64,000 nt of DNA, taken from assembly GCA_044449985.1 (NCBI GenBank), contig JBIOIQ010000003.1:10901-74900 (forward strand). Reading direction: 5' to 3'. Shown here piece after piece: positions 692 to 29,193 of this stretch. Numbering within the stretch: the first letter of the stretch is position 1; each line of letters opens with the position of its first letter. Origin of the DNA: Candidatus Saccharimonadia bacterium (GTDB lineage: Bacteria > Patescibacteriota > Saccharimonadia > UBA4664 > JBIOIQ01). The notes under the pieces are model-generated. The model did not search any database. It saw only the letters and a program-made list of their open reading frames with translations, and was not told the DNA's origin. The translations under genes and the position numbers were made by a program.

Positions 692-3346
692 TTATGCCGG
701 TGGACAGTGATTAGGGTTTGCAACGCCAGGAGGGATTAGGAGCCCATTATCGAGCGGGTCGACGTTGCCATTATCGTAACTGTCGCTGCCTTTTATTAGA
801 TTAAAATGAAGGTGAGGCCCGGACGATGTCCCGAAGTTGCCCATGGTGCCTATTTGTTGACCTTGAGTGACCATGTCCCCTGCTTTGACCAACATACTGT
901 TCATGTGGCCGTAGCTGGTGTAGTACTGGGTGCCGTGTTGGATCGCCACAAAATTCGGGCCATAGCCACTGGCCGGCCCAGCAAACACTACGGTACCGGC
1001 GGCGGCTGCATAAATTGGAGTTCCAATGCCACTTGAGTTGGCTATATCTATTCCGGGGTGCGTTCCCCCGACGGCCAAGGTGTAGCATTGAGTTATAGTT
1101 CCTCCGGCAATTTGTTCCGGCCAGGATAGTCCTCCGGGGTTAGTTTGTCCTGATGATACGGAAGAGCCTGAGCCACCTCCACTAACATTGGCTTGTTGGT
1201 TATAGATCATAACCAACGAATGAATGACGTACTTATCCGCCTGATATTGGTCACTCTCAAGGTGTAATGTTGTCGTATCGCTGTCGCAGGCACTGGTTGG
1301 GCCGGCAATAATTCTTTTGGCATACTGAGTCATTATGCTTGCGCCAGTCTGTGGGTTCCCGCTAGAATTCGCCGTCAAATAGCACTGTTGAAATTTTGAT
1401 ACATCTGAAGATTTCACCGTATTCTCGTTATTTAGGATGTCCCAGCTTTGAGTCGAAACTGGACCTACGTTTGGTAGACCGGTTATAGGGTCAAGCGCCG
1501 GATTATCCGCATTCGCAATATTTGTAGAAATTGCCGCAAGATAATGACTGCCCGATATTATCCATTTATCTGGGCTAAATATGGAACTCATAACCGTATC
1601 CACATGTGCTAAAACCGTAGCCGGGGTAGTTGGCATTGCAAAAGCTAATTGAACAACCAGCGACCTAGGATTATTCCCGTCGAAAAGTTGATAGGCCAGT
1701 CCGCCTTTTTTCGCCCGGGCAACCTGTTGGTTATGGATTTTGGTCAACATAAATGAGGCTTGGGCGGCGGTTTGCTGACGGCATCCGATTACCATGCACG
1801 ACATGTCAGCCATAATCTTAGCTCCTCCAGACATGTAGTTGCCCATATCCAGCGGGTCACCGTGAGCCGAAATTGCAGTATGCGCTAAAGTTGACACTTC
1901 CGTTGCTAGCAGCGCTGTGCCAGCAGTACCGGCAAAAAATGTACCAAATCCGGCGACTACAATTCCCACAATAGTTGCCGTGCCTATGTCTACTCCGGGC
2001 GTTATAGCTCCAATTACTAGTAAGATGGCAGTTAATCCCAGAATTCCAACTTGAACATTTGGTTGTAGCAGTCTCTGGCAAACCGGCTTAAGACCGATTA
2101 TATGGCTGAGCATGTAATTTACAAATGCACCATACTGCCCAAACGGCGCACTCAGGGGCATAGCCTGATTGGTAAGTCCCGGTCCAGTTATCGGCTGACC
2201 CGAAGCTTGTTGGGCTCCGGCGGAGTTTATAAATGACACTGATCCGTTATCAAACTTATCTGCAACTGCGCCGATGCCCGTTAAATTGCACTGGCCCTGT
2301 TTTTGACAATCAGCCCAAGAAAATACTGATTCTGCTGCTCGCACTAGGCCACCTGCCTTGTAGGCGGTGTAGGCCTCTTGTCCTCCTCCCCAGATGTCGA
2401 TGGCAATGCAGGCAATGGTAAACTTAGAAACGAGATCAAGAGCGCTGGCCGTTGCGCCCAAGAGATCGTTTGCTACCGATTTAGCAGCTTGGTCCGGTAT
2501 ACTCCCGTTTTGTACGTCAGTTTTGAGTTGGTTTACTTCGTTTTGGACTTGACCAGGAGGGAGGGCAGTCAAATCGCCCCCAGTTCCTTGAATCTCAGAA
2601 TCAAGTGAAGTGGTGACATCTGTTTCGGCCTGGGCTTCAGTCTCATTGGGATCAACCTCTTGCACAGTTCTGTCTTGGATTCCGGCAGCTTCATCGACGA
2701 CTGTACCTAATGCTCCATCGGCGGTGGTTTGTAGCTCCGTTTCGACTTCTGCGGTTAAGTTCTGAGCGTCTTGTCCTGAGACACTGGTTAAATCTACTCC
2801 TTCGACCTTCGCGTCAGCGGCCGCTTGCCCGAGTTGTTCGGCTAATGGAGCATCCTCAGGTAAGGGTGCCTGGTCGGGAGTGCCTGCTGGGACAGTTTTA
2901 GCCTCGGCGAGAGCAGCGTTAATTCGATCTGAAACAAGTGAATCTACCTGAGCAAACCGATAATCTATAAACAGTTCTTTTATATGGTTGAGTTTGAAAA
3001 GTGCTAAGAAAAAGAAAAATAGTATAAGCGGGACAATAATAACCCCGACTACTCCCGCAATCGGCCCAAATATCTTGGCATATTTTTTGACATTTGATTT
3101 GCCAGTTGCTTTTGAGGCTCCCTTTAGCAACTTTGAAGTAGATAAACCTGCACCTCCTGACCCCGTTGCCGATGAAGCCCTGTCTTGCCCAAGAGGTGAT
3201 TCTTGTGTCTCAGTTGCCTGCTCGGGCACGGACGGTGCAGCGTCTGTCAGGGGACTTGGAGATGAACCCGGCGGTCGACTGGGTTCCGTGAGACCCGTGT
3301 CGCGCACCGGTGTCAGGTTATCTTCGTCGAGAGTCCCGAGAGGCAT
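692..3346 (-). CDS. Large membrane protein with C-terminal M23/LytM metallopeptidase domain (T4SS-associated cell-wall hydrolase candidate)
   Basis: 884-aa ORF with a Pro/Ser/Thr/Glu-rich N-terminus and TM helix IFGPIAGVVGVIIVPLILFFFFLALF. More hydrophobic helices lie mid-protein (VGILGLTAILLVIGAITPGVDIG...). The C-terminus carries the M23 motifs HPGIDIA (HxxxD) and GPHLHFNL (HxH). A 1-nt gap follows the virB4 stop and a 2-nt gap precedes the next gene. Confidence 0.85.
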   Translation of the reverse strand: MPLGTLDEDNLTPVRDTGLTEPSRPPGSSPSPLTDAAPSVPEQATETQESPLGQDRASSATGSGGAGLSTSKLLKGASKATGKSNVKKYAKIFGPIAGVVGVIIVPLILFFFFLALFKLNHIKELFIDYRFAQVDSLVSDRINAALAEAKTVPAGTPDQAPLPEDAPLAEQLGQAAADAKVEGVDLTSVSGQDAQNLTAEVETELQTTADGALGTVVDEAAGIQDRTVQEVDPNETEAQAETDVTTSLDSEIQGTGGDLTALPPGQVQNEVNQLKTDVQNGSIPDQAAKSVANDLLGATASALDLVSKFTIACIAIDIWGGGQEAYTAYKAGGLVRAAESVFSWADCQKQGQCNLTGIGAVADKFDNGSVSFINSAGAQQASGQPITGPGLTNQAMPLSAPFGQYGAFVNYMLSHIIGLKPVCQRLLQPNVQVGILGLTAILLVIGAITPGVDIGTATIVGIVVAGFGTFFAGTAGTALLATEVSTLAHTAISAHGDPLDMGNYMSGGAKIMADMSCMVIGCRQQTAAQASFMLTKIHNQQVARAKKGGLAYQLFDGNNPRSLVVQLAFAMPTTPATVLAHVDTVMSSIFSPDKWIISGSHYLAAISTNIANADNPALDPITGLPNVGPVSTQSWDILNNENTVKSSDVSKFQQCYLTANSSGNPQTGASIMTQYAKRIIAGPTSACDSDTTTLHLESDQYQADKYVIHSLVMIYNQQANVSGGGSGSSVSSGQTNPGGLSWPEQIAGGTITQCYTLAVGGTHPGIDIANSSGIGTPIYAAAAGTVVFAGPASGYGPNFVAIQHGTQYYTSYGHMNSMLVKAGDMVTQGQQIGTMGNFGTSSGPHLHFNLIKGSDSYDNGNVDPLDNGLLIPPGVANPNHCPPA

Positions 3347-3347
3347 G

Positions 3348-5225
3348 CTAGCTTACCTGATTATACTTTTGAGCGTAATCAGCTTCCGTTTTTGCTGGGT
3401 TGGTTTCGATGAGTTCGGACTCAGTTTGAGAAGCTAAGATTCGAATTATGACATGGTTTAAACCTGCAAAGAAGAGTCCTTCTCCGACCGGGAACTGACT
3501 TAGGCGAGCTTTTTCGGCCTCAGTTAATTTAAAGGTGTCGGCTACGATATCAACGGCTGAAGGGGCTTGCTTGAGGAGTAGTTGGAGCGAAGAGTTTGAG
3601 ACGACGGCTCGACCCAGTCTTGAGCTTAAGAAATCTTCCACGTCTTGCGAAATGGTGGTTAGACCCAAGAAATATTTCCGAGCTCTTTTGGCAATGCTAA
3701 ACATAAAATTAGCTGAGTCGTCATATTTCATGAGTTGCCATGCTTCGTCGACTACTAGTATGCGTTTGCGTTTATCTGATTTTACTCTGTTCCAGATGTA
3801 ATTTAAGATGATGTACATTGCGACCGGGCGCAGTTCATCTTCAAGGTCGCGAATGTTAAAGACCACAAAATTGTTATTTATATCGACATTGGATTGCTGA
3901 GAAAATATTCCCGAGAATGTCCCCGTAGTGTATTTTCGAAGCCTCTGAGCAAGCGCGGGCCCGTTTCCGCTCATACTTTCCAAAATGCTATACAGATCAT
4001 TCATAGTTGGGGGTGTTGCGCCGTGTGTCAGTGGATCATTGGTAATACCTGCTTTGGCATAGGTATTAATGATTGCCACGTCGAGATCAGCATCTTCGGC
4101 AGGAGTTAGTGCTCCATAATTGGTTTGTGAACCGCCGGCAGCTTGCTGCGCCTGCGCAATTGCGCCACCCATCATGAGCCTCAGCAGTCCATGCAGAGTG
4201 ATTATGTTTGCGCGAAGGGCATTATCGGCATCTTCAGAATCGAGCACTCTCGGCAGGTCAAACGGATTTAGCCTGGTATCTGATGCGAGCGAAACCCTTA
4301 AGTAACTTCCACCGACCGCGTCGCATAAAGTGCGGTACTCGTCTTCCGGATCAATAATTATTACCTCTGTACCGAGCATGAGAGAACGTAGTGCCTCAAG
4401 TTTTACTGCAAAGCTTTTTCCGGCACCGGATTTCGCAAAAACCACCATATTGGCATTTTCAAGACTAAAGCGATCAAATAAGACTAAACCGTTATTGTGG
4501 CGGTTGAGCCCGTAAAGAACTCCTTCATTCCGAGATAGTTCCGCAGAAGTAAAAGGAAAACAAGTTGAGAGCGCACCGGTATTCATATTGCGTGATATCT
4601 GAAGTTGATCAGACGCCATTGGCAGCGTTGAGTTAAAGCCTTGCTCCATCTGCAAACTCGCTGCTTTGGTATAGACGAGGGATTGTCCGAACATGCCCTC
4701 AATTTTTCGTTGCATATTGGTGAGATTTTCTAGCGTATCGGCGTACATTGTGAGATACAAGCCAAACCGGAAAAAACGTTCCTCCCCGACCTGCAGTTTG
4801 TCCCGAAGCTCCTCGGCATCAACGATGGCTGCTTCAAGTCCGGGATCTCTGACTCGTCCCTTTTCTTGGTTAATGTCATAGGACGCCTGCAGCTCACTAA
4901 CTTTTCGTCGTAAGTTATCTAAGACAACTTGGCTCTCAACCGGGTAGACATTAATACTGATATCGATTACTTCGTCCAAGTTGATCAAGGGCGATAACCA
5001 CCCCGTAAAAATTTGCCGTGGGTAGCCGTACACGTAAAGGGTTCGGGCAAATCGTTGCCCGATTTGAATATAGCCGGCTTCAATTTTAAGAGACGGTGGC
5101 GCAATAATGTCTCGCATCGAGACGATCCCTTGGCGGTAGACCGCCTCGGCTTCCTGTTGTTCGCGGATTTTTTCAGCTTGCGCCAGTACTAGTGGATCAT
5201 TGGGAGTTTTACTAAAAATTGCCAT
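3348..5225 (-). CDS. virB4: VirB4/TrsE/ConE-family T4SS ATPase (ATPase-containing part)
   Basis: 625-aa ORF with Walker A FAKSGAGKSF and Walker B ILVVDEAWQL. Upstream segment IAPPSLKIEAGYIQIGQRFARTLYVYGYPRQIFTGWL is typical of VirB4-family middle domains. Confidence 0.9.
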   Translation of the reverse strand: MAIFSKTPNDPLVLAQAEKIREQQEAEAVYRQGIVSMRDIIAPPSLKIEAGYIQIGQRFARTLYVYGYPRQIFTGWLSPLINLDEVIDISINVYPVESQVVLDNLRRKVSELQASYDINQEKGRVRDPGLEAAIVDAEELRDKLQVGEERFFRFGLYLTMYADTLENLTNMQRKIEGMFGQSLVYTKAASLQMEQGFNSTLPMASDQLQISRNMNTGALSTCFPFTSAELSRNEGVLYGLNRHNNGLVLFDRFSLENANMVVFAKSGAGKSFAVKLEALRSLMLGTEVIIIDPEDEYRTLCDAVGGSYLRVSLASDTRLNPFDLPRVLDSEDADNALRANIITLHGLLRLMMGGAIAQAQQAAGGSQTNYGALTPAEDADLDVAIINTYAKAGITNDPLTHGATPPTMNDLYSILESMSGNGPALAQRLRKYTTGTFSGIFSQQSNVDINNNFVVFNIRDLEDELRPVAMYIILNYIWNRVKSDKRKRILVVDEAWQLMKYDDSANFMFSIAKRARKYFLGLTTISQDVEDFLSSRLGRAVVSNSSLQLLLKQAPSAVDIVADTFKLTEAEKARLSQFPVGEGLFFAGLNHVIIRILASQTESELIETNPAKTEADYAQKYNQVS

Positions 5226-5971
5226 TAACTCGAGCCTCCTGCCAAAGGTTGGGGTGGAGTTTTTCCTTCGCCCTTGGTCACGACTGCCGATTGGAGTTGG
5301 GCCGGATCTATAAGTTTTTCATTTTGAGCGGCTTCGGGATTGTAGGAGGCATAATAGAGATCAATTAATTCTTGAGAGTTAAGCGGAATTGCCCGGAGTC
5401 CCATTTGCGCCAGTCCAGCCGAAACCAGTTGGACCCTTTGCGCCAGCTCATTCTTCGCTCGTTCAAAATCGGCGGCTCCAACAGTTACAACCGGGGTAGG
5501 TTTAAAAATGTTCCCCAGACCCGTCACAATATTCGTCTTTGTTGGATCAATTTGAGGGAAAAATGGGACAACTACGAAAAATTGTTTGTCCATGATATTT
5601 ACCTCGTCAACGAGACCTTTAATATTGGCGATGTAATCGTCCATCAGGCCGGCCAGTAATTGATTGTCTTGATCAGTTCTTTTTTTACCAAGATTTTCAA
5701 TATAGGCATCAAGATCAATGCGTCTTGATTTAATGATGATTTGGAGAGGAAAATGAAGAGAATTTAAAAATCCCTGATAAGCAAACTCAACCGCATCCTG
5801 TTCCTGAGCACTCATGAGATCAAAGTTTATCGCGCTCGAAAGAATTACGGCCCGAAGGCTGCCATCTCGCATGACGACAATGCCGTCTTTTATTTCGGAT
5901 ATGAGTAAGCTACCCTGAGTACTCTTAAGGTTAGTGGCGGGTTGAGCAGGTTGATTAACAGGTTGAGCCAT
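5225..5971 (-). CDS. Candidate detached N-terminal domain of a long Gram-positive-type VirB4 (split VirB4), otherwise hypothetical
   Basis: 248-aa ORF whose stop overlaps the virB4 ATG (TAATG, 5227-5223). Segment DGIVVMRDGSLRAVILSSAINFDLMSAQEQDAVEFAYQGFLNSLHFPLQIIIKS resembles, from my memory of the family, the extreme N-terminus of the ~800-aa VirB4/ConE/Tn916-Orf16-type ATPases. 248 + 625 aa adds up to that length. Confidence 0.5.
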   Translation of the reverse strand: MAQPVNQPAQPATNLKSTQGSLLISEIKDGIVVMRDGSLRAVILSSAINFDLMSAQEQDAVEFAYQGFLNSLHFPLQIIIKSRRIDLDAYIENLGKKRTDQDNQLLAGLMDDYIANIKGLVDEVNIMDKQFFVVVPFFPQIDPTKTNIVTGLGNIFKPTPVVTVGAADFERAKNELAQRVQLVSAGLAQMGLRAIPLNSQELIDLYYASYNPEAAQNEKLIDPAQLQSAVVTKGEGKTPPQPLAGGSS

Positions 5972-6024
5972 TCGAAATAAATCCTAAAAGAAATCAGTTC
6001 GAGATTCTTATTTGCGATTGGTTT

Positions 6025-6921
6025 TTAGGGGTTTTGGGTGTTTGGCCTGACATCAATGCTCTGCCCTTCTATAAGCTGATTAGCTTGATTGGCTTGAGCA
6101 GCAATCTGGCTGACCTGACTCACTTTCAGATCAGAATTCTCCATGGCTCTTTTTAGTATATCAGCAATCGGGTTCACCGTCATCTCAGTTACGCTTACTT
6201 TTTCCGCAGTTACTGCAGGTTCAGCCAGATGTTCAGGTTGGGCTATGCTACCCGGTTTGACCTCTTTTGGTTTAGGCAGCTGAGCCTGTACTCGCTCCAG
6301 GGCTTCCTCGCGAATATTCTTTTCAGAAGCGTGAATTAGCTCATTGAGATTTTGCATCGAAGGATTGGTGGTACTCAACATATCGTCATTTAATCCAACG
6401 TCCATCGGTTCAACGGTATTTGCTACCAGCTCGTTTGTGGCAAGACGATCGGACAAATCAATCACTGGTACCATGTCGCTATCTGATTCTTGAACTTCCG
6501 GCTGTTTTGAGCTCCATCCCCTTGTGTCGACAATTTCAGCAAGTCGCTCAAGTTCGCCCTGGACTTTTCTTGGATCGAGCTGGGTCTGGACTTGCTTCAC
6601 CTTCGGCTGCTCGATCTTAAAAACTTCGATCAGCTCTTCTTTGATCCAAAGTCTACGCCTTGGCTTAAACCAGTAATTGATAAGGGCGATAAAATAAGCT
6701 TCAAACGGTTGACCGTCGCGCTGATACAGTCCAAGCAATAAAAATATTAGTGCCGGTGGGACGCCAACGATCAAAAAGACAAATAGGATCGACTTAAACA
6801 ATTCATAGGTAATTAGAAGCCAAGCAAATCCAATCACTGAATAGATAAACTGCTTTAGGGTGAGGAACCCGATTATCTTGTCTTCCGCCTCAACATCTTG
6901 CGGGACTTTGTACTGAGCCAT
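6025..6921 (-). CDS. PrgI-family / VirB3-like small T4SS membrane protein with long C-terminal extension
   Basis: 298-aa ORF. N-terminus MAQYKVPQDVEAEDKIIGFLTLKQFIYSVIGFAWLL plus a second TM (VFLIVGVPPALIFLLLGLY) fits the PrgI-family pattern. It lies directly upstream of the VirB4 modules. Confidence 0.6.
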   Translation of the reverse strand: MAQYKVPQDVEAEDKIIGFLTLKQFIYSVIGFAWLLITYELFKSILFVFLIVGVPPALIFLLLGLYQRDGQPFEAYFIALINYWFKPRRRLWIKEELIEVFKIEQPKVKQVQTQLDPRKVQGELERLAEIVDTRGWSSKQPEVQESDSDMVPVIDLSDRLATNELVANTVEPMDVGLNDDMLSTTNPSMQNLNELIHASEKNIREEALERVQAQLPKPKEVKPGSIAQPEHLAEPAVTAEKVSVTEMTVNPIADILKRAMENSDLKVSQVSQIAAQANQANQLIEGQSIDVRPNTQNP

Positions 6922-6979
6922 ATGACATTAGTATAATGCCAATTCGTCAAAACTAAGACTTGAAACCTGGAAATCGCGA

Positions 6980-9178
6980 TTAGTCTTCGTCTTCAACCAA
7001 GTCTACTCGACCCGCCCCAGCAATACCTTCTGGGTTGATTTTACCTTCCGGCGATACATAGGTCATGAAAAAGTCATAGGCTGACATCACGTGTCCATCA
7101 TAGTTAACTTGCTTCTCGCGCATTAACTGTTCATAGCGCTCATCATACATATCCTCGATTTGCCCAGTCAGTGGACTGATATCTCGCATGCCTCTGACCA
7201 AACCATCTCGGAATCGTTTGACGGTGTTCTGGTCAATTTTTGAAGAAAGATCTCTCGACTTTGCAATCTGAGTGAAGCTATCCGCGAGTTTTGATACACG
7301 TTCCTGTCGAAGTGAATCGACAGTTTTGCCTAAATTAACTTCGTTTTCGCTTGGAGGCACGTCACCCATCAGTCGAGTAAAGAAGAACGGGGAGGCAGAA
7401 CCGTGCATAGATGCAACTTGAGCTGCACTTAAGGTGTCGAAGACAGAATTTAGTTTACCTGGGTTTACCGGGGGGACGGCTTGAATAACTTGCCCCATCA
7501 TGCCACTAGCGCCAAGTCCCCGATACCAGGTATCTTGGATTTCGGATTTGGGTAGCCCAGATAAATTGGCAGGATCCGTTGCTGTGGTTAGATCTCGGAA
7601 CCCACCTCTATAGTTATCTGCAGATGTATCAAATAGCTTATTGTAGATTCGTGAGACTTCAAGATTTCCACCTTGCTTAACAATTTGAGCTAAAGCTTGT
7701 GCGCGCATGGCTTTATTGATTGTGACAGTTTTTCGTTTACCACTTGGATCTTCATAACTAAACTGTGAACCATCTTTTCGCAGGAATACTTCTTTCATGA
7801 GAGCATCATTTCCCATGCCTTGATCGTCAAACAGGGAACCCCAGTCTTTCATCTGGGCAGATACTGCATCATCATATCCTCGAACGAGCCTTCTCTTAGT
7901 CGGAGTTCCAAACCAATATTGACCAGCCTGGCCCCTGGCGATTCCACGTTGAAGCCTTTTACCAAAACTATTGCCCCGAATATCTCGGGTACCGATGAAA
8001 CCTCGTTCTCTTTGGGTAGCAACAGCATCTTTGCGCAATTGACTGTTCCGAAGTCGATTGCGAGCTGAACGTGTTCGATCTGAAATCCGTCCTGAAACAG
8101 TGTTATAGATGCTCCCCGCCCATTTAAAAGTTGCTGGGATCATGTAGAAGGCTATTAGTGGGACCATACTAGCGAGCACTATGTCGACCTGACTCGCAAC
8201 GCCGTTAGTATTTCCTCCGGTGCTGACGCCCTGAGCTGCTTTTGCAACAATTCCACCGATCGAAAGAATGGTCACGATTATTGGATAAAGTAATATCATC
8301 CTCACCAGATTTTTGTACCAAAGCTTAAACATGCTTTCGGTATTTGGAAGTACCCAGGCGGCAAAAGCTAAAGGTGAAGCAATTATTAAAATCGCAATGA
8401 TAAGTTGCCTGGCGGCTAGACTAATGAAAACTCCTGCGACACCTATAACCAGCCCTAAGAGCATGAGCAATATAACGGGGAGTCCCAGAATAAAGCCAGT
8501 AATAATTGCTCCAAAACTTGAGGCCGTTATTACAAAGATCGATTGAACGCTTGCCAAACTTGAGCCATTTTGACCTGGCATTGACCCAGCAAGACCATTG
8601 AATATACCGCTGATGCCTGCCCCCAAAATGTTGCCTATATCTACAGCCCAGGCCGAAATAAAAAATGAGAGTTGCACCAAAATCACGGCCACTATCAGTT
8701 TTGGAAGCATCGACTTAAGTTGGTATGAGCTACCAGAGATTGAGGTCAAGGTGCTGAAAATGAGCACCATAAAAAGTAAAACAAAAGCAACATCTGCCAG
8801 ATCTCTAAATGCCGACCAGGCCTGGTAGATACTATTGTCTTGAACAAGAGGTCGTACTTGGAGTAGGTCAACTATCAATCCACCCATTTTTGAAACTGCA
8901 TCCGTTAAAGTATTAATTATTGGGCATGCGATCCATGTTAGCGGACCAATTCCAGAGGGACAGGTAGATTTGATATTTAAGCTATTATTAGTCGAGGTTG
9001 GAAGCTGGCTTGCAATGTTCGAATTGCTCGTTGCCGAATTCGAGCTTATATCGGTTGATTGGGTAATCGACGGTTGGTTATTTACAGTATTTGCCGCTTC
9101 GGCATAATTAAATTGACCCAGGAGACAGCCTGCGATTAATAGGGACATAAAAGCAACAAGAAATTGTCGATAATTCAT
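6980..9178 (-). CDS. Polytopic membrane protein, VirB6/TrbL/ConG-like channel-subunit candidate (paralog A)
   Basis: 732-aa ORF with a signal/TM N-terminus and a Ser/Asn/Thr-rich ectodomain. Multiple hydrophobic helices follow, then a ~330-aa Arg/Lys-rich soluble C-terminal region. It shares blocks with 9351..12020: ADVAFVLLFMVLIFS vs ADVGFILIFLFIIFS, and SPLAFAAWVLPNTESMFKLWYKNLVRMILLYPIIV vs SPLAFIAWILPNTENLFTAWYKNLTKAILMYPLIV. Confidence 0.65.
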   Translation of the reverse strand: MNYRQFLVAFMSLLIAGCLLGQFNYAEAANTVNNQPSITQSTDISSNSATSNSNIASQLPTSTNNSLNIKSTCPSGIGPLTWIACPIINTLTDAVSKMGGLIVDLLQVRPLVQDNSIYQAWSAFRDLADVAFVLLFMVLIFSTLTSISGSSYQLKSMLPKLIVAVILVQLSFFISAWAVDIGNILGAGISGIFNGLAGSMPGQNGSSLASVQSIFVITASSFGAIITGFILGLPVILLMLLGLVIGVAGVFISLAARQLIIAILIIASPLAFAAWVLPNTESMFKLWYKNLVRMILLYPIIVTILSIGGIVAKAAQGVSTGGNTNGVASQVDIVLASMVPLIAFYMIPATFKWAGSIYNTVSGRISDRTRSARNRLRNSQLRKDAVATQRERGFIGTRDIRGNSFGKRLQRGIARGQAGQYWFGTPTKRRLVRGYDDAVSAQMKDWGSLFDDQGMGNDALMKEVFLRKDGSQFSYEDPSGKRKTVTINKAMRAQALAQIVKQGGNLEVSRIYNKLFDTSADNYRGGFRDLTTATDPANLSGLPKSEIQDTWYRGLGASGMMGQVIQAVPPVNPGKLNSVFDTLSAAQVASMHGSASPFFFTRLMGDVPPSENEVNLGKTVDSLRQERVSKLADSFTQIAKSRDLSSKIDQNTVKRFRDGLVRGMRDISPLTGQIEDMYDERYEQLMREKQVNYDGHVMSAYDFFMTYVSPEGKINPEGIAGAGRVDLVEDED

Positions 9179-9350: not shown

Positions 9351-12020
9351 TCATTTTTTTCTAGCACTGAAATCTGTAATTATTCCACCAGCATCAGTAA
9401 TCGATCGTTTAAGATAATCGGAAAATTTCATATCACCGTAAGAAGTTGATACATCAAAATCTTCCGGAGAGTTATTTTGAAGCCAGGTAATTGCTTCATC
9501 TTTATAACTTTTGGCGGTCTGTGCATCAACATCTTTCGCAAGATCCTGATTTTTGGTTAACGCCAGTAAATTATCTAGATTACGCTTAGCGCTATTGCTC
9601 GTTGTGTTAAATGCTACGTGAGCACCCACTTCTCCAGACGAACCCTTGAGGCCGGCAATTACACCTTCATTTGCTTGATCCATAAATGCACTCGCGTCTT
9701 TTACCATATGTGGTACTGGTCTGGCCATTAGACCTTTAGCATTTCCGAGAACAAGACCTCGATCTAAAGCAGACTTAGCAGAACCCTGCTTACCAGGGAG
9801 GTCAAAACTATATGCCCCAGTTTTTTGGTCAATGTTAAATCCTGCATCTTTCCCATTTGGTTTGTATACATGATCTTTATATAAATCTGCAATCTCTTTA
9901 TCCGCGCCGTGTGATCCCATATATGCAATTGCGGCTTCTCCCTGGCCATCACGAAGTTTCATCTCTGGACCATCCCCGATCTTGTAAGTACTATCTCCAG
10001 CGAGGTAAGCTTCAGCAATTTTCTTTAGATCGGAATTTTTGTAGCCATTTTCCTCAAAACCAGAAGTAAAGTCTTTATATCGTGCCGATCTGGCTGCTGC
10101 GGCTGTTGCAGCTATTCTTCGCTGTCCAATCTGGCCAAAGCTCAAAGCATTACCGCTTTTTACTCTTGAGCGTGCCCTTTGGAGCAAGTTCCCATTTCCC
10201 AAATTCAGTGCAGCTTCTTCTGCCATATTTTTTCTTCTAGATTCAATCAACGGGCTGACTTTATTCTGCGCTGCTCCGCCTGTTCTAGAAGCTCTTCCGG
10301 CAATAAATCCACTGGCTGCTCCTATCATTGTGCCTGACATTTTGAAAGTGGCAGGGATTAGGAATAAAGGAGCTACTAGCCCTCCTAATTCAAATATAGC
10401 TTGCAGAGATTTGGAACCCGGAGCGGCTGATGCAGCTATCGCAACAATTTGTCCAGCAACAATCAAAAGAACAATTAGAGGGTACATTAGGATTGCTTTT
10501 GTTAGGTTCTTATACCAAGCGGTAAATAGGTTTTCCGTATTAGGTAGTATCCAGGCAATGAAAGCTAAGGGAGACAAGATTACCAATAACGTAATTACAA
10601 CTTGCCTAAACAGCAAAGTAATTACTACGCCAATAACTGCAAAAACTGCTCCGACAAGTGCAACGATTAAAGCGCCAACGATTGCAGCCCCAAATCCTAG
10701 TACTGCTGCGCCAAAAACAGTTACAACTCCTGCCAAACCGATTCCACCTGTTATTGTACCTAGGGTTACATTCAAATCAGCTGAGGGAACATTCAATAGT
10801 GCTTGTTTAAAAGTGATTTGTAGCCCACTGCCTAATATGTTTCCAATATCAACAAGTATTGAACATAGAAAATACGACAGTTGTACTAGTACAATTGCTG
10901 CGACTAATCTGGGGAGAATTTTTTTAACAGTGTATGCATCGAGACTTATAGATAGCATATTGGAGAATATAATAAATAAAAAAATTAGGATAAACCCAAC
11001 GTCTGCGAGGTTCTTAAAAGCATTCCAGATGGCATATGTGGGTGAACTTGTTGAGGTTGAAAGCGGTGAAAAAATGAGTAGTGGTGTAATGATGTCAGAT
11101 TCAACGGTTTTCACGGTAGAAATAAGCAGAGATATCAGAGGACAGACGATCCAGCTGAAAGGTGGGTCTGCATTACAGGCTACATTTGAGTTTGAATTAG
11201 TTCCTGTCGTGCCTCCAGAAGGAGATTGCGGTGGAGCAGATGCTAAGTCAGTTTTGCCGATCTGGACTTTTATCGTATTTGAGACAAGACATGAACCTGA
11301 TTGGTGACCAGAATAAGAGATTTTAGAATCAAATGGATAGCCGCTCCAAGAGTTCTGTAATGTGGTCGTTCGATCAGAATCCGTTATATCAAGGTTAGAA
11401 TATTGATGGCGTGCGACAAAATCTGCTGTACTCGGATTATTTGGGTCGGCAATGAGACTCGATTGGCAATTTGATGTATTTTCAACGTATTCATTAGCGG
11501 CAGCACCGGGTTTTCCTGTAAGAAATGTATGACAATCTGGAGTTTGACTATCACAGTCTGTTGTGTTTATTGTTTGCGAATCGAACCAATTGAAAGCTAT
11601 ATTTACGTTTCCGGAAGTTCCGCCACCTGCAAGAGTAAGTTGAATTACATTCCCACTCTTAACGCAACCCTTATTTATTCCGGAACTATTCCCACTAGTG
11701 GCGGAAAGAACATATTTTTGATACCCAACTGTAGTACTCGCAGATCCATTTCCGTCTGAAACGGCTTGTCCAAGGTGAAGAGAATCATGGCAAGTATTAC
11801 CCGGATTTGACACACGATAAAAAGTATAATCTGTGTCGATTCTATTATCATAAAAAGTTGTAGACCCCCCATCTCCAGGATCGTAATTTAAATGTGAAAT
11901 ATCTATCCAAGTAGCTGTTCCTTGAGTAGCGGCTTCCGTTGAAGCTGGATAAAGCTGAATGCCCAACCATAATAGTGGCAGTAGAAAAATAAATAATCTG
12001 GGGACTTGTTTTAGTCGCAT
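9351..12020 (-). CDS. Polytopic membrane protein, VirB6/TrbL/ConG-like candidate (paralog B) with large Cys-containing N-terminal ectodomain
   Basis: 889-aa ORF with signal peptide MRLKQVPRLFIFLLPLLWLGIQLYPASTEA. A ~260-aa Cys/Asn/Ser/Thr-rich domain follows, then a TM bundle paralogous to 6980..9178 and a ~300-aa soluble C-terminal region. GGTGAG SD-like motif precedes the ATG. Confidence 0.65.
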   Translation of the reverse strand: MRLKQVPRLFIFLLPLLWLGIQLYPASTEAATQGTATWIDISHLNYDPGDGGSTTFYDNRIDTDYTFYRVSNPGNTCHDSLHLGQAVSDGNGSASTTVGYQKYVLSATSGNSSGINKGCVKSGNVIQLTLAGGGTSGNVNIAFNWFDSQTINTTDCDSQTPDCHTFLTGKPGAAANEYVENTSNCQSSLIADPNNPSTADFVARHQYSNLDITDSDRTTTLQNSWSGYPFDSKISYSGHQSGSCLVSNTIKVQIGKTDLASAPPQSPSGGTTGTNSNSNVACNADPPFSWIVCPLISLLISTVKTVESDIITPLLIFSPLSTSTSSPTYAIWNAFKNLADVGFILIFLFIIFSNMLSISLDAYTVKKILPRLVAAIVLVQLSYFLCSILVDIGNILGSGLQITFKQALLNVPSADLNVTLGTITGGIGLAGVVTVFGAAVLGFGAAIVGALIVALVGAVFAVIGVVITLLFRQVVITLLVILSPLAFIAWILPNTENLFTAWYKNLTKAILMYPLIVLLIVAGQIVAIAASAAPGSKSLQAIFELGGLVAPLFLIPATFKMSGTMIGAASGFIAGRASRTGGAAQNKVSPLIESRRKNMAEEAALNLGNGNLLQRARSRVKSGNALSFGQIGQRRIAATAAAARSARYKDFTSGFEENGYKNSDLKKIAEAYLAGDSTYKIGDGPEMKLRDGQGEAAIAYMGSHGADKEIADLYKDHVYKPNGKDAGFNIDQKTGAYSFDLPGKQGSAKSALDRGLVLGNAKGLMARPVPHMVKDASAFMDQANEGVIAGLKGSSGEVGAHVAFNTTSNSAKRNLDNLLALTKNQDLAKDVDAQTAKSYKDEAITWLQNNSPEDFDVSTSYGDMKFSDYLKRSITDAGGIITDFSARKK

Positions 12021-12154: not shown

Positions 12155-12670
12155 TCAAGGAATGTAGTCTTCGCTCCAAATCGTGCCCAGGTAGTTAAAT
12201 CCTGCACGATGTTCCTTTCCGAAACTATCGAAGAAGTAAACGACGATCGCTGAATTCGGTCGCATTTCTGAGACTTCTGAATTCATCGAGATATTTTCCC
12301 ATCCAGGACCAAGTCCGTCGGTCGTAACTTTATCGATCCTGAATCCTTTTGCGCTCGGGTATTTTATCTCAAAACTTTTCATTAGGTCGGTTGGGGTATG
12401 AATGCTATTCGATGGGAGCACATCTATTGGTGATCCAACCCCAAGGGAAGGTTTAGTTGTCGTAGCGGGGGGATATCTCGGTTGGGCAATGATCACTGCT
12501 CTGTTATTGAGAGGGAGCAGCAGTAAAAGGATCACGAAGACGCTGATCCCTATGCAGCAACAAAAGAGCAGAGCGAGAAATGCAAGAAGACCTTTGTTCG
12601 AAATCTTCGATCTCAAACTTTTGACTTGCATTTTATCCTCATCCGTAAGGAGAGTTGAATTGCCGCCCAT
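12155..12670 (-). CDS. Bitopic membrane protein, first gene of the T4SS-like operon (possible VirB8-type analogue, speculative)
   Basis: 171-aa ORF with an AGGAG SD. It has a short cytoplasmic N-terminus, one TM (LLAFLALLFCCCIGISVFVILLLLL) and a ~110-aa external domain. Confidence 0.6.
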   Translation of the reverse strand: MGGNSTLLTDEDKMQVKSLRSKISNKGLLAFLALLFCCCIGISVFVILLLLLPLNNRAVIIAQPRYPPATTTKPSLGVGSPIDVLPSNSIHTPTDLMKSFEIKYPSAKGFRIDKVTTDGLGPGWENISMNSEVSEMRPNSAIVVYFFDSFGKEHRAGFNYLGTIWSEDYIP

Positions 12671-12767: not shown

Positions 12768-12797
12768 TTGACATTAACCTCAAGCGTTAGCTACAAT
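12768..12797 (+). promoter_or_regulatory. Candidate promoter of the pilin operon; -10 box only 7 nt from the ATG (possible leaderless transcript)
   Basis: TTGACA (12768-12773), an 18-nt spacer, then TACAAT (12792-12797). The ATG is at 12805 and no SD lies between. Confidence 0.5.
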
Positions 12798-12804
12798 TAA
12801 CCAA

Positions 12805-13497
12805 ATGGGCAATAATAAATCTTTGAAATTTCATTTGAAATTTGCCTTACTTTTTGTAGTGTGTTGTATTTTTTTAGGCATTTCCAAAAAAGCTTACGCA
12901 ACATCTACATCTTTTCTTATTACTTGTCCTACGGGTCAAAATGTTACCTCAGGAAATTTTGGACCGCTTGCAATAGCGAGTTGCGATGGAGGGGGGTCAG
13001 CTTCAAGTGTCCCAGGGGCATCAGGTAATTCGACAAATGTCAGCGTGACTTGCCCAAGCAATCAAAGTATCACAGGCCCGGCAACACTATCTGGATCTCC
13101 GGCAAAAATAGGTTTCTCTTGTCAAGACAACAATACCCCACCTGTGCTTTCAATAAGTAGCTCAGTAACTTCGCCTAATCAGGCATGCACATCAAGCTCA
13201 GGTTCTCCTTGTTGCGACAGTGTTGGATTGGGCATTGCTGTTGGCTGTGTTAGCACAACCAACGGAAACCCTATTTATGATTATTTGCGTGCTTTAATTC
13301 AATTTATCTCTGGTATTTTTGGATTAGTCGCAGTACTTATGATTGTAATTGCAGGTTTCCAGTATATGACTTCGGGAGGAAACCCTGATGCACTAAAAAA
13401 GTCAAAATCCAGATTAGCTAATGTAATTATTAGTGTTGTTTTATTTGCCCTGATGTTCGGCATACTAAATTATCTAATTCCTGGAGGAGTTATTTGA
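12805..13497 (+). CDS. T4SS pilin-like protein (TrbC/VirB2-like core) with N-terminal Cys-rich repeat extension
   Basis: 230-aa ORF with signal peptide ...FLGISKKAYA and two related Cys-bracketed modules (ITCPTGQNVTSGNFGPLAIASC, VTCPSNQSITGPATLSGSPAKIGFSC). The C-terminal core GIFGLVAVLMIVIAGFQYMTSGGNPDALKKSKSRLANVIISVVLFALMF is shared with the next five genes. Confidence 0.7.
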   Translation: MGNNKSLKFHLKFALLFVVCCIFLGISKKAYATSTSFLITCPTGQNVTSGNFGPLAIASCDGGGSASSVPGASGNSTNVSVTCPSNQSITGPATLSGSPAKIGFSCQDNNTPPVLSISSSVTSPNQACTSSSGSPCCDSVGLGIAVGCVSTTNGNPIYDYLRALIQFISGIFGLVAVLMIVIAGFQYMTSGGNPDALKKSKSRLANVIISVVLFALMFGILNYLIPGGVI

Positions 13498-13895
13498 TGT
13501 TTGGGATGAAGTTACTTTCAATTCTTCCTTTGGGAAATCCAGCTTGCGATACACAGATTGCAGGCAAAAATCTAATCCTACCTGATTTATATGCCAATTT
13601 AAGAGGCGGAGGGAATCCTGGGAGTGCAGGCGCAAACTGTTCCCAGCTAGTAGCATTTAATAGTTTGGACGTGATAAAACAACTCATTATCAATGTTTTA
13701 CAAATTGCGATAGCACTTGCAGGAGTGGTCGCGGTTGGAATCGTAATATATGGTGGTATTTTGTATATCACTTCCAACGGTAATTCTGCTCAGATAACTA
13801 AAGCGAAAGATACTATAGTTAGCTGGATAGTAGGGCTCATAATCATAATTGGTGCATACGCAATCGTAGCCTTCCTTGCTAATATATTTTCATGA
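13494..13895 (+). CDS. T4SS pilin-like protein (TrbC/VirB2-like), paralog 2
   Basis: 133-aa ORF with a 4-nt overlap with the previous gene. Core is LAGVVAVGIVIYGGILYITSNGNSAQITKAKDTIVSWIVGLIIIIGAYAIV. Confidence 0.7.
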   Translation: MMFGMKLLSILPLGNPACDTQIAGKNLILPDLYANLRGGGNPGSAGANCSQLVAFNSLDVIKQLIINVLQIAIALAGVVAVGIVIYGGILYITSNGNSAQITKAKDTIVSWIVGLIIIIGAYAIVAFLANIFS

Positions 13896-14200
13896 TCAAC
13901 TTAATCGACATCAAATTAGCTGATTCCTTATGCTCTACCGCATCAGCATGTGGTCTGCCTCAAGTCAGTTTCGATAATATTACTCTGGGGAAAATTATCT
14001 CAGCTGTTTATGAAATTATTGCGGCCGTATCCGTTTTGTTTCTTGTAATAGGGGCCACGAAATATACTATTTCAGGAGGTGATCCGGCGGGTATTAAGAA
14101 CGCCAAAAATACTGTTATTTATTCTATAGTTGGATTAATCATTAGTCTTTTAGCATTTCTGGCGGTAACATATTTATCTAGCAAAGCAGGAGGCTTATAA
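13892..14200 (+). CDS. T4SS pilin-like protein, paralog 3 (no obvious signal peptide)
   Basis: 102-aa ORF with a 4-nt overlap. Core is AAVSVLFLVIGATKYTISGGDPAGIKNAKNTVIYSIVGLIISLLAF, and the N-terminal segment carries CSTASAC. Confidence 0.65.
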   Translation: MINLIDIKLADSLCSTASACGLPQVSFDNITLGKIISAVYEIIAAVSVLFLVIGATKYTISGGDPAGIKNAKNTVIYSIVGLIISLLAFLAVTYLSSKAGGL

Positions 14201-14202
14201 AG

Positions 14203-14571
14203 ATGAAAAAAATACGTCTATTGATTTGTTTGTATGTTATTTTTGTCCCAGCTTTAATGTTTGCGGACTCTACTAGTTCTATAATCACCAATTCGGCTTG
14301 TCAAGCAAACCCACAAGCACTTGGATGTAACGGTCAAGCAGCTGTTGGTGCCGGGAGCATTTTTAATAATGGTATTAATGTTTTTATAGGGGTAATCGCC
14401 GCAATCTCAGTTATCATGGTTGTAATCGGTGGGTTACGCTATGTCTTATCCGGTGGAGATGCAGCCGGAGTTCGAAGTGCAAAAGACACTATTCTTTACG
14501 CACTAATCGGATTAGGGATTTCCATTATAGCGTTTGGTATTGTTAACTTCGTTATCAGTAAGCTAGGATAG
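14203..14571 (+). CDS. T4SS pilin-like protein, paralog 4
   Basis: 122-aa ORF with a signal peptide (MKKIRLLICLYVIFVPALMFA) and Cys pair CQANPQALGC. Core is VIGGLRYVLSGGDAAGVRSAKDTILYALIGLGISIIAF. Confidence 0.8.
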   Translation: MKKIRLLICLYVIFVPALMFADSTSSIITNSACQANPQALGCNGQAAVGAGSIFNNGINVFIGVIAAISVIMVVIGGLRYVLSGGDAAGVRSAKDTILYALIGLGISIIAFGIVNFVISKLG

Positions 14572-14575
14572 ATTT

Positions 14576-14971
14576 ATGAAACGTCTCAAGTTACTGTTTG
14601 CAGGGTTTGCTTTATTAGTCCCTTTATTAGCGATTGGTGCTTTACCCGTACTTGCTGCTGCTGAGACTCCTCAAAACGCTGCATGCGTCGGTGCTGGCGG
14701 AACTTTCGATCCCGCAACCAGTACATGTTCAGGCAGTAACGGTGGACTTGATCTGAACGCCGCCTTTAAAAAAGTTGCCGATACATTGATCTATGTAGTT
14801 GGGGCCATATCTGTTCTCATGGTTATTATAGGCGGTTTGCGTTACGTTCTATCTGGAGGAGATTCGACCGGAGTCAAAAATGCCAAAGACACGATACTTT
14901 ATGCCTTAATTGGTGTAGGAGTAGCTCTCGTATCTTATGCAATCGTTAACTTCGTTGTTTCAAGACTCTGA
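14576..14971 (+). CDS. T4SS pilin-like protein, paralog 5
   Basis: 131-aa ORF with a signal peptide (...LAIGALPVLAAA) and Cys pair CVGAGGTFDPATSTC. Core is IIGGLRYVLSGGDSTGVKNAKDTILYALIGVGVALVSY. Confidence 0.8.
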   Translation: MKRLKLLFAGFALLVPLLAIGALPVLAAAETPQNAACVGAGGTFDPATSTCSGSNGGLDLNAAFKKVADTLIYVVGAISVLMVIIGGLRYVLSGGDSTGVKNAKDTILYALIGVGVALVSYAIVNFVVSRL

Positions 14972-14973
14972 GC

Positions 14974-15002
14974 TTTTCAACTTACCTTGATTGTGCTACA
15001 AC
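14974..15002 (+). promoter_or_regulatory. Candidate internal promoter for the last pilin gene (extended -10 TGcTACAAC)
   Basis: TTTTCA (14974-14979), a 17-nt spacer, then TACAAC (14997-15002) preceded by TGc. The same TGCTACAA(T/C) string recurs at 29179-29187 and 42225-42233. Confidence 0.35.
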
Positions 15003-15057
15003 TAGAGTCAAGTGTTTCAAATAAATATAAGCACAACCGTTAAGGAGAAATTATTCA

Positions 15058-15462
15058 ATGACCCAAACTCTCAGTAATTATCGAGCAAAGATTGCAACCG
15101 GCGCTATTCTTGCTGCAACTTTTGTGGCAGCTGGAACTGCTAGCGCGGCTGATTGTACCACTTCGTCAACTGATCCGATTTGTCAGGGAATTAATGGAGC
15201 GCAGCCGACAAATACGCCAACGACTTTGTTTGGAACCGGTGGTATTTTCTCAACCATTGCCGATACCCTTATTTTGGTAGTAGGAGCTGTGTCTGTAATC
15301 ATGCTAATTATCGGTGGTCTTCGATACGTGCTTTCAAGCGGTGAATCAAGTGCTGTTAAGGGAGCAAAAGATACTATCCTCTACGCTATTGTCGGAATTG
15401 TGGTTTCGCTGCTTGCCTTTGCGGCCGTCAATTTCGTAGCCGGAAAATTCATCACAGGTTAG
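15058..15462 (+). CDS. T4SS pilin-like protein, paralog 6
   Basis: 134-aa ORF with AAGGAG SD, a signal peptide (...AAGTASA) and Cys pair CTTSSTDPIC. Core is IIGGLRYVLSSGESSAVKGAKDTILYAIVGIVVSLLAF. Confidence 0.8.
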   Translation: MTQTLSNYRAKIATGAILAATFVAAGTASAADCTTSSTDPICQGINGAQPTNTPTTLFGTGGIFSTIADTLILVVGAVSVIMLIIGGLRYVLSSGESSAVKGAKDTILYAIVGIVVSLLAFAAVNFVAGKFITG

Positions 15463-15562: not shown

Positions 15563-16006
15563 TTATAGTTCTGGCTTAACCTTAATTTTCTTGACTTTAT
15601 CTTGAGCAACTTTAGGAATTGTGACCGTTAAAACGCCATCTTTTAAGCTTGCCATGGCTTTTTCTGCGACTGTTGAGGTTGGTAAAATCACTGATCGCGA
15701 GAAAGCACCCCAATAACATTCTTGGACGTAGTAGTGTTCTCGATCGACTTCTCGTTCTTCCTTGCGTTCACCGCGAAGGGTAACAACATCCTCAGATACG
15801 CTGATATCGATATCATCAGCTTTGACGCCGGCAATCGGAGCTTTAATAACCACACTATCCTTAGTCTGGTAGACATCGACGGCTAGCTGCCCTTCGAGTT
15901 CTTCCTCTCCTAGCCAGTCTTCACCGCTCCCTTCGGCAGCGCCATCAAGAAACTCGTCTTGCAAGACGTCTTCTTCGCTGTCTGGAGCATTTTTCTTGCC
16001 TGCCAT
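15563..16006 (-). CDS. Hsp20/alpha-crystallin family small heat-shock protein
   Basis: 147-aa ORF with GGAGGA SD. Alpha-crystallin-domain pattern ...AVDVYQTKDSVVIKAPIAGVKADDIDISVSEDVVTLRGERK...FSRSVILPTSTVAEKAMASLKDGVLTVTIPK. Confidence 0.9.
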   Translation of the reverse strand: MAGKKNAPDSEEDVLQDEFLDGAAEGSGEDWLGEEELEGQLAVDVYQTKDSVVIKAPIAGVKADDIDISVSEDVVTLRGERKEEREVDREHYYVQECYWGAFSRSVILPTSTVAEKAMASLKDGVLTVTIPKVAQDKVKKIKVKPEL

Positions 16007-16203: not shown

Positions 16204-17496
16204 GTGGCCAAATCTTCGAAAACTTCTTTGGGGTTACAACTTCGCAGCCCTTCACAACTGCGTATGACCGTACTATTTGGGATTGTAGGAATTCTTGCGG
16301 CAATTGGTATTTATCAGGTATTTTTTGCACATGCGACACCGCAAATTCCCGGAGACTTGAATGGTGATGGAGTCGTCAATATCTTGGATTTGTCTATTCT
16401 TGCCTCGAACTGGGGAGTTCATACCGGAGCCGGGAGCTCATCAGGTGATATTAACAGTGATGGAATAGTTGATATTACCGATCTTTCCATCATGGCCTCT
16501 AACTGGAATCAGACTTCCCTTTCCGGAGTTATTACAGCAGATCCAAATGCGACACCGGAAGCAGTAAATTTATTGAAACTACTCAATACGCTTCCGAGCA
16601 ATCCAAGCCACAGGATTCTGAGTGGGCAATTTGTCGATGACTCGAGCTTATATGCATCAAATGTTAACCCTATCACAACCGCTACCGGGAAAACTCCATC
16701 GATAATTGGCTATGACTTCTTTTGGGATTATTCCGGAAGCGCTTCTTGTAATTCTGGAGCACCCAGGTCAAATAACTGGCAAGATATTGCGGACGATGCG
16801 GTCGCGAAAGCTCAAGTCGGGCATATTATTGAAATTTCATTTCACCTTGATAACCCCGAGAATGCCTGCGCGTATAGTAACCGAACAATTGATTCGAGTA
16901 TTTTTACATCTGGCACCATTGGCAATACAAATTTAAATGCTTCACTTAATAACGAAGTAAGCGCTTTTACTCAGCTTCAAAACAATCACATCCCGGTGCT
17001 TTTTCGGCCGTATCACGAAATGAACGGAAATTGGTTTTGGTGGGGGTCACAAAGCTGGTATCCACAGTTGTGGCAATACACATTCAACTACCTCACGAGT
17101 CATGGAGTGCATAACCTCATTTATGTTTATTCACCAAATCTGAGCGCAGACATGACCCACTACCCGGGCAATAATTATGTTGATGTGGTAGGGGTTGATA
17201 CCTATAGTGCCACTCCAAATGATGGACAATGGATAACGGCCCAACAATCATATGCCCAGAGTACACCTGGCAAACCTTTTGCTATTAGTGAATTTGGGTT
17301 TGCTAATCCTCCGGCTGCGAATACTTACGATAATTCCGTTTTATTGGGTGGGCTGACGGCTACCGCTAACCAAGCAACGGGTCCAAGCTACTTTATGAGT
17401 TGGAGTGATCAGTGGAATATCGATCAACAAAAGAATCTTAGTGTGCTGTACCAAAACTCGGCAATTGCAAATCTCGGAGATTATACAAATCCTTAA
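16204..17496 (+). CDS. Secreted glycoside hydrolase family 26 (beta-mannanase-like) with two dockerin/EF-hand-type repeats
   Basis: 430-aa ORF with an N-terminal anchor/signal (MTVLFGIVGILAAIGIYQVFFAHA). Dockerin-type repeats are DLNGDGVVNILDLSILASNWG and GDINSDGIVDITDLSIMASNW. GH26 signatures are FRPYHEMNGNWFWWG and FAISEFGF. The start (GTG 16204 vs ATG 16264) is uncertain. Confidence 0.8.
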   Translation: MAKSSKTSLGLQLRSPSQLRMTVLFGIVGILAAIGIYQVFFAHATPQIPGDLNGDGVVNILDLSILASNWGVHTGAGSSSGDINSDGIVDITDLSIMASNWNQTSLSGVITADPNATPEAVNLLKLLNTLPSNPSHRILSGQFVDDSSLYASNVNPITTATGKTPSIIGYDFFWDYSGSASCNSGAPRSNNWQDIADDAVAKAQVGHIIEISFHLDNPENACAYSNRTIDSSIFTSGTIGNTNLNASLNNEVSAFTQLQNNHIPVLFRPYHEMNGNWFWWGSQSWYPQLWQYTFNYLTSHGVHNLIYVYSPNLSADMTHYPGNNYVDVVGVDTYSATPNDGQWITAQQSYAQSTPGKPFAISEFGFANPPAANTYDNSVLLGGLTATANQATGPSYFMSWSDQWNIDQQKNLSVLYQNSAIANLGDYTNP

Positions 17497-29142: not shown

Positions 29143-29193
29143 AGCCTTAGTATAATCACTCACGATGAGCTTAGCGAATGCTACAATTGTCCC
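29143..29193. promoter_or_regulatory. Divergent promoter region; -10 boxes sit 6 nt from both start codons (leaderless candidates)
   Basis: Plus strand: TGCTACAAT with TACAAT at 29182-29187 and ATG at 29194. Minus strand: TATACT at 29154-29149 and ATG at 29142. A plus-strand TATAAT also lies at 29151-29156. Confidence 0.45.

Follow-up and report, generated by a model that had tools for sequence, protein, structure and literature searches.

The closest described counterpart of the locus analyzed here is that of Southlakia epibionticum ML1, which comprises a divergent VirB6-like gene (SEML1_0013), six pilin genes (SEML1_0014-0019), and an Hsp20 gene (SEML1_0020) (PMC10633639). The six ML1 pilins are 132, 185, 103, 126, 127, and 138 aa long (PMC10633639), and all six were scored essential by Tn-seq (Wang et al. 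2023, PMC10633639). This six-pilin array has been reviewed (PMC12857230, PMC12102498), and arrays of 2-11 VirB2-like genes, this six-gene array included, have already been described in Patescibacteria (PMC12102498). Both the array and its essentiality are therefore known, and cultivated Saccharibacteria cannot live as epibionts without the T4SS and its six pilins. The formation of filaments by Patescibacteria T4SS pilins is treated in the literature as a possibility. The published accounts of these pilins consulted here make no mention of N-terminal extensions, cysteine patterns, or disulfides.

The window, i.e., the whole stretch of 64,000 nucleotides that was analyzed, harbors a T4SS locus of the same layout. 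An 889-aa VirB6/TrbL-like protein, the N-terminal ectodomain of which is poorly conserved, is encoded divergently (9351..12020, − strand) from six PF18895 pilin genes in tandem (12805-15462), and a convergent Hsp20 gene (15563..16006, −), which is a conserved synteny marker, closes the array. To the left of the VirB6/TrbL-like gene, a block on the − strand (692..9178) encodes an 884-aa M23 peptidase (692-3346), a VirB4-like ATPase (3348-5225), a 248-aa TraC-like protein (5225-5971), a PrgI/VirB3-like protein (6025-6921), and a second VirB6-like protein (6980-9178). The wider neighborhood consists of housekeeping genes (LeuRS, TsaD, Mur ligase, DnaG, RpoD, and PolA); hence, the system is chromosomal. 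The divergent VirB6-like gene, the six PF18895 pilins, the convergent Hsp20 gene, the adjoining PrgI and VirB4 genes, and the chromosomal location are all shared with ML1, and the VirB6-like/six pilins/Hsp20 layout recurs position by position in L001 (a 1.19-Mb genome), L002/L003, and L084. The two systems differ in where the long pilin sits: in ML1 the first pilin has 132 aa and the second (185 aa) is long, whereas the first pilin of the window has 230 aa and two Cys-loop modules, a comparison that draws on the gene sizes, order, and Pfam spans of the published supplement.

An orphan ORF (12155-12670, −) encoding a 171-aa single-pass membrane protein lies between the VirB6-like gene and the pilins, 134 bp from the first pilin gene and divergent from it, with the VirB6-like gene beyond. 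It has no Pfam match and no tblastn match in 83 related loci. L001 has no gene at this place, and L084 has an equally placed, similarly built 225-aa gene, with no detectable homology between the two (E=21). The N-terminal ~300 aa of the VirB6-like protein (11121-12020, −), a predicted ectodomain, are likewise lineage-specific, with no tblastn match in the other loci; against L084 they are 24% identical, while the remainder is 34% identical. The two genes flanking the shared promoter region, this one and the first pilin gene, thus both have poorly conserved, exposed N-termini. Just beyond the array and Hsp20, a GH26 glycoside hydrolase with dockerin repeats is encoded (16204-17496, +); the essential envelope proteins of S. 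epibionticum include a dockerin-domain protein (PMC10633639). Further along, three FemAB-family paralogues surround a DegT-type aminotransferase and adjoin a Mur ligase (26895-31221), which looks like a peptidoglycan cross-bridge cluster. No disulfide-forming enzyme was found among the window ORFs scanned.

The first pilin gene, pilin-1 (12805..13497, +), is an uninterrupted ORF with a 230-aa product; the NCBI entry "MAG: pilin [Candidatus Saccharimonadia bacterium]" has the identical sequence. The protein consists of a Sec-type signal peptide (aa 1-32; 12805..12900, +), a 120-aa Ser/Thr/Gly-rich region with eight Cys residues, and a T4SS_pilin core. The leader has a basic n-region followed by the hydrophobic FALLFVVCCIFLGI and by AYA/T, at which cleavage is predicted after aa 32 from the sequence and from the equivalent site, ALA/S, of P0002, a homologue discussed below. 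The VirB2-like core (aa 153-230; 13261..13494, +) harbors an NPIY motif, a first predicted helix, the basic loop GGNPDALKKSKSR, a second predicted helix, and an ILNYLIPGGVI tail. PF18895 matches aa 156-224 with 47.2 bits (cutoff 26.6), while PF04956 (TrbC/VirB2) scores 23.8, just under its threshold of 27.9. The curated Pfam match, the predicted leader followed by a pair of hydrophobic helices with a short basic loop between them, and the setting amid T4SS genes (VirB4, VirB3, and VirB6) all identify pilin-1 as a pilin of the T4SS locus and the first of six in tandem, as originally predicted.

The region between leader and core carries Cys residues at positions 41, 60, 83, 106, 128, 136, 137, and 148, and its extension has no Pfam match. 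Module 1 (aa 33-75; 12901..13029, +) is composed of a strand-like STSFLIT, a C41-P...C60 loop with 18 residues between the cysteines, and a DGGGS linker. Module 2 (aa 76-127; 13030..13185, +) has STNVSVT, a C83-P...C106 loop with 22 residues between the cysteines, and a Ser/Thr/Pro-rich tail. A proximal Cys cluster follows (aa 128-148; 13186..13248, +; C128, C136, C137, and C148), in which the conserved pilin-1 proximal loop CDSVGLGIAVGC is joined by one additional Cys pair. The three strings quoted in the original prediction are exact, i.e., ITCPTGQNVTSGNFGPLAIASC at aa 39-60, VTCPSNQSITGPATLSGSPAKIGFSC at aa 81-106, and ACTSSSGSPCCDSVGLGIAVGC at aa 127-148, and the positions given there, 12916-13138, correspond to aa 38-112. 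The ~130 extra residues claimed for the protein shrink to an excess of ~90-95 aa (aa 33-127) when it is set against minimal relatives and paralogues 4-6. Similarly, the "further Cys-rich stretch" is extra only with respect to one added Cys pair, the remainder being the proximal loop of every position-1 orthologue.

A sigma-70-like promoter, TTGACA-18-TACAAT (12768..12797, +; 11/12 consensus matches), ends 7 nt ahead of the pilin-1 ATG, which implies that the pilin-1 mRNA is probably leaderless or near-leaderless. No Shine-Dalgarno sequence was found before 12805, and the protein contains no Met, other than the start, ahead of aa 178. The remaining pilins, all PF18895 members on the + strand, are encoded at 13497-13895, 13892-14200, 14203-14571, 14576-14971, and 15058-15462, and each has two Cys residues upstream of its core. 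Pilins 2 and 3 (13497-14200) have no obvious Sec leader, unlike pilins 1, 4, 5, and 6; pilin-2 and its L001 orthologue share an LPDLY motif, and the latter begins with the lipobox-like MHAFKILAAAC. GGAGG-type sites precede pilins 2, 4, and 6. For pilin-2, the ATG of which overlaps the pilin-1 stop codon, this site is provided by the codons of the conserved C-terminal P-G-G of pilin-1 (CCTGGAGGA; 13480-13496). A GGAG-type sequence is found at the ends of position-1 genes in 12/19 loci, and the arrangement seen in the window was also noted in L001, L006, L009, L014, L029, L046, and L051. Because these codons double as a ribosome-binding site, part of the "PGG tail" conservation may reflect a constraint at the nucleotide level.

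A search with aa 33-153 among 1.84 billion representative proteins (phmmer) returned the protein itself, P0002 (E=3e-7), and P0011. The last is a Cys-free cohesin/dockerin-type repeat protein, and its match was judged compositional, leaving P0002 as the sole other protein with the exact two-module form. P0002 comes from an independent 927-bp assembly (L085). Its modules 1 and 2 are each orthologous to their window counterparts (scores of 83 and 88, reached in 0/2000 shuffles each), and the two proteins agree in where the Cys residues lie, in the C-P motif, and in the strand-like segments ahead of the loops. Identity is 63% in the core and 38-40% in the modules. A tblastn search of the extension against 83 related loci yielded the self match only. 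The closest relative by core is P0004, the first gene of the fully syntenic six-pilin array in L084, which is 69% identical to pilin-1 in the core (46-60% for the other five pilins) and has no modules. The modules are thus kept, with altered sequence, in P0002 but not in P0004. Since P0004 lacks the modules and the first pilin of ML1 has just 132 aa, the two-module form is a lineage-specific accessory and no conserved stand-in for VirB5, the role suggested for it at the outset.

The two modules of pilin-1 had been described as related. Their likeness does exceed chance: the local BLOSUM62 score between aa 34-75 and 76-127 is 47, which is equaled in 8/2000 shuffles, and the alignment is driven by S-T-x-x-x-[IV]-T-C-P-x-x-Q-x-[IV]-T. 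Profile comparison with hhalign gives P=2e-4 and a probability of 46% over 29 columns spanning both Cys residues, each profile having been made from just two sequences (pilin-1 and P0002). The likeness is only modest, however, and is not accompanied by any DNA-level repeat within the gene. In P0002, the likeness between module 1 and module 2 is no longer significant (389/2000 shuffles). Any duplication behind the two modules would thus be old. Diversification by a diversity-generating retroelement was also considered and rejected: a blastn search of 12901-13263 against the window returned only the segment itself, with no template repeat, and the window ORFs scanned contained no reverse transcriptase (RT) domain.

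The wider family was surveyed by a scan of species-representative genomes, which yielded 80 loci, and arrays were mapped with a core HMM built from the six window pilins. Position-1 genes of Saccharimonadia form an orthogroup of their own, with cores that score best against pilin-1 of the window; the margin over the other positions is usually clear where arrays are closely related. Characteristic features of this orthogroup, all of which are present in pilin-1, are the proximal Cys loop, NPI[YF], and an [IL]NYLIPGG-type tail. The proximal loop, C..V.LGI.VGC followed by NPIY, is conserved across the orthologues; all of them have C148, and at least 90% also have its partner Cys. In both close-relative comparisons made, no other pilin core is as well conserved as that of pilin-1.

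The N-regions of the same orthologues vary. Over 20 arrays, position-1 proteins range from 106 to 286 aa in length (sd 48.8), as compared with an sd of 19.9 at position 2 and of 6-12 at the others. Among ~37 orthologues, the N-region holds from one Cys loop (proteins of ~100-130 aa) up to six (286 aa). The minimal form has one Cys loop, and so does each of window paralogues 4-6; in many orthologues the single Cys loop has 7-19 residues. Long position-1 ORFs with signal peptides are found in at least 12 other genomes. When extensions are compared pairwise, only 5/105 pairs reach z>=4 (median z of 0.2) and 100/105 are unalignable, against a median core identity of 42% in the same comparison. In the only reasonably close pair with extensions, L017 and L018, dN is 0.35 for the extension and 0.105 for the core; dS is saturated, so that the dN contrast alone is usable and positive selection is not demonstrable. 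Whole pilins 5 and 6 have a dN similar to that of the extension, which can thus be called fast only in relation to its own core. The emerging picture is one of a scaffold under strong constraint, with an N-terminal region that can be dispensed with and changes fast. In some lineages, ML1 included, it is the second pilin that has the longer N-region.

Two regularities run through these variable regions. Mature Cys counts are 2, 4, 6, 8 (the window protein), or 12, and the count is even in every position-1 orthologue examined, i.e., in 34/34 with an automatic leader cut and in the other three by eye. Even counts are the expected signature of extracytoplasmic disulfides and argue for disulfide pairs, in keeping with the original description of the region as disulfide-rich and, given its position after a predicted cleavable signal peptide, as extracellular. 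The second regularity is the loop start C-P-[TASDP]-[GNDS], which occurs in 11/37 position-1 proteins at 5.3 per 1000 aa of the pilin-1 N-regions vs. 0.15 per 1000 in background ORFs of the same loci; position-1 pilins are the only ORFs with at least two copies. With this motif recurring, the window modules would seem to be two copies of a loop unit that is widespread, diverges fast, and varies in number.

Other ORFs of the surveyed loci combine pilin-like segments with additional domains in different ways. In L025 (Candidatus Nanosyncoccus sp.), a 328-aa pilin (4233-5219) has an N-terminal extension of ~250 aa with six mature Cys residues. In other Patescibacteria, the arrangement is opposite to that of pilin-1, with a T4SS_pilin core followed by a huge Cys-rich C-terminal domain (L042 1262-6065, L016 4821-6116, L023, L031, L038, and L056); one such domain has 731 aa and 29 Cys residues. 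A third group has an N-terminal pilin-like hairpin followed by a long polytopic membrane stretch, perhaps of VirB6 type (L061 5235-6653, L054 5253-6449, L080 5265-6548, and L078 3327-4490), and a short stand-alone pilin precedes each of these ORFs. P0005, a 186-aa database protein from L001 (9857-10561), is a gene call cut short at its N-terminus; the ORF actually reaches 234 aa with a proper signal peptide. Automated annotation can therefore hide position-1 extensions.

AlphaFold places two helices in mature pilin-1, at mature residues 124-157 and 162-192, with pLDDT values of 73-81 from shallow alignments. The extension is predicted with lower confidence (pLDDT of 36-71 over both models and 38-66 in the full mature model), and mean pLDDT is 57 for the mature protein and 55.9 for the extension alone (pTM of 0.48). 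In the low-confidence model of the extension alone, short strands appear at the start of each module. With models of this confidence, Foldseek returned nothing below E=1 from the PDB for either; the T-pilus structure 8exh ranks ninth with a non-significant E=9. A sequence search of the PDB with the family profile gave chance-level matches only (E>=0.6). The extension is 71% S/T/G/N/P/A/Q and has four charged residues and five N-x-S/T sequons. Given this composition and the low pLDDT, it could be a largely flexible, disulfide-stapled region as well as a compact domain.

The explanation we favor, and regard as probable though well short of established, is that the essential pilin scaffold carries the N-region as a variable, accessory decoration that is stapled by disulfides and faces outward. 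Pilin-1 is the position-1 member of a conserved six-gene VirB2-like operon of a chromosomal Saccharimonadia T4SS. Following Sec export and cleavage at AYA32, its two hydrophobic helices would form a membrane hairpin with the basic loop in the cytoplasm, such that the 120-aa N-terminal region would end up outside the cell. There, four disulfides formed from consecutive Cys pairs would staple this Ser/Thr/Gly-rich, nearly uncharged region, in which two diverged "beta-strand + C-P-x-[GN]...C loop" modules would be followed by the universal position-1 proximal loop. In the solved T-pilus, the VirB2 termini face outward and the lumen is lined by the loop between the helices; by analogy, the N-terminus of pilin-1 would point outward, provided that the packing of the subunit follows that of known VirB2 pilins. 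The modules would then give a conserved assembly scaffold a variable exterior, comparable to the hypervariable outer domains of flagellin, that is gained, lost, multiplied, and rewritten among lineages while the core stays constrained. Their most likely role would be in contact, specificity, or shielding, at a surface that faces the host or the environment.

Three other explanations have to be weighed against this decoration. Pilin-1 might be a tip adhesin that substitutes for VirB5, i.e., a low-copy minor pilin that caps a filament and binds a host-envelope ligand through its modules. The statement that the locus has no VirB5-like gene is upheld, as neither pilin-1 nor the other locus proteins scanned have a VirB5/TrbJ-family Pfam match at E<=1, and the individual essentiality of all six S. 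epibionticum pilins suggests distinct structural roles and not redundancy. A tip position would also be consistent with the pilin-1 core and C-terminal tail being the most distinctive of the array, with an exposed region that is the most variable, and with the lineage-specific N-terminal ectodomain of the neighboring VirB6-like protein. The extension, however, has no similarity to VirB5/TrbJ, and the low-confidence prediction for it is beta/coil and not a helical bundle. In some lineages the long extension sits on the second pilin, and many position-1 orthologues, P0004 and SEML1_0014 among them, have a single Cys loop, so a tip or adhesin role cannot depend on the window modules, which the majority of orthologues lack. 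A tip adhesin is for these reasons considered rather unlikely. A related proposal, that the modular disulfide-loop array of position 1 (one to six loops, often with C-P-x-G/N) is the host-contact and host-range determinant of the T4SS, is held with a similar degree of doubt; if true, pilin and adhesin would be fused in one protein that takes the place of VirB5 in a monoderm and changes over time as loops are gained, lost, and rewritten.

Alternatively, the extension could be a passive spacer, a flexible, possibly glycosylated, disulfide-stiffened stalk that traverses the wall or S-layer, has no binding specificity, and drifts in sequence. Its composition, with few charges and five sequons, the low structural confidence, the unalignable extensions of different lineages, and their freely varying length are what such a stalk would be expected to show. 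Conservation of the Cys residues, the C-P motif, and the pre-loop strands in P0002 at 38-40% identity speaks against it, as does the recurrence of the C-P-x-[GN] loop start across lineages, which indicates some structural constraint beyond that of a linker; we consider a mere spacer unlikely. Finally, an error in the called start, a frameshift, or chimeric assembly could have created an extension that is absent from the real protein, and the missing Shine-Dalgarno sequence and the tiny family of exact relatives would fit such an error. Yet the near-consensus promoter 7 nt upstream, the canonical signal peptide at the ORF start, the lack of an internal Met before aa 178, and the equivalent long position-1 ORFs elsewhere make an artefact very improbable. 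The same architecture in the independent assembly of P0002, which keeps both modules in the same order, likewise disposes of a recent in-frame fusion confined to this genome.

Set beside known systems, the variable decoration proposed here has partial parallels. Pilin-1 resembles VirB2, TrbC, and TraA in its predicted cleaved leader, two-helix hydrophobic hairpin, and basic connecting loop. Classical mature pilins of this type, however, have ~65-75 aa and no ectodomain or Cys loops, whereas pilin-1 has 120 aa ahead of the hairpin; moreover, the T-pilus and F-pilus T4SS are Gram-negative, and the host of the window is a monoderm. VirB5 is a soluble helical-bundle protein that has no membrane hairpin. 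The relation of pilin-1 to VirB5/TrbJ is at most a possible analogy, that of an exported, exposed component in a system with no recognizable VirB5, and the extension differs in being fused to a pilin and in its low-confidence beta/coil prediction.

Flagellins with hypervariable outer domains and those minor pilins of type IV pili that bear extra domains are possible analogies, as they combine a conserved polymerization scaffold with an exposed region that is lineage-specific and variable in length. Their folds and assembly are unrelated to those of pilin-1, in which the variable part is N-terminal and built of short disulfide loops. Pilin-1 itself is not a PilA-type pilin, as the class III leader G/F-x-x-x-E is absent and the hydrophobic hairpin is C-terminal. 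Tandem, sequence-divergent copies are also known from the VirB2 arrays of Bartonella and Anaplasma, as cited in PMC12102498. Those copies are thought to be alternative variants, whereas the window positions are orthologous across genomes and all essential in ML1, which suggests a heteromeric assembly. Against this background, what appears to be new is the pattern at position 1, where the core is the most conserved and the N-region varies in length, keeps an even number of Cys residues, and bears C-P loops; the two-module variant appears to be new as well. With the most conserved core and the most variable Cys-stapled exposed region joined at one orthologous position, pilin-1 can be singled out as a candidate for the part of the machine that faces outward, and the number and sequence of its loops offer a simple marker to correlate with host range.
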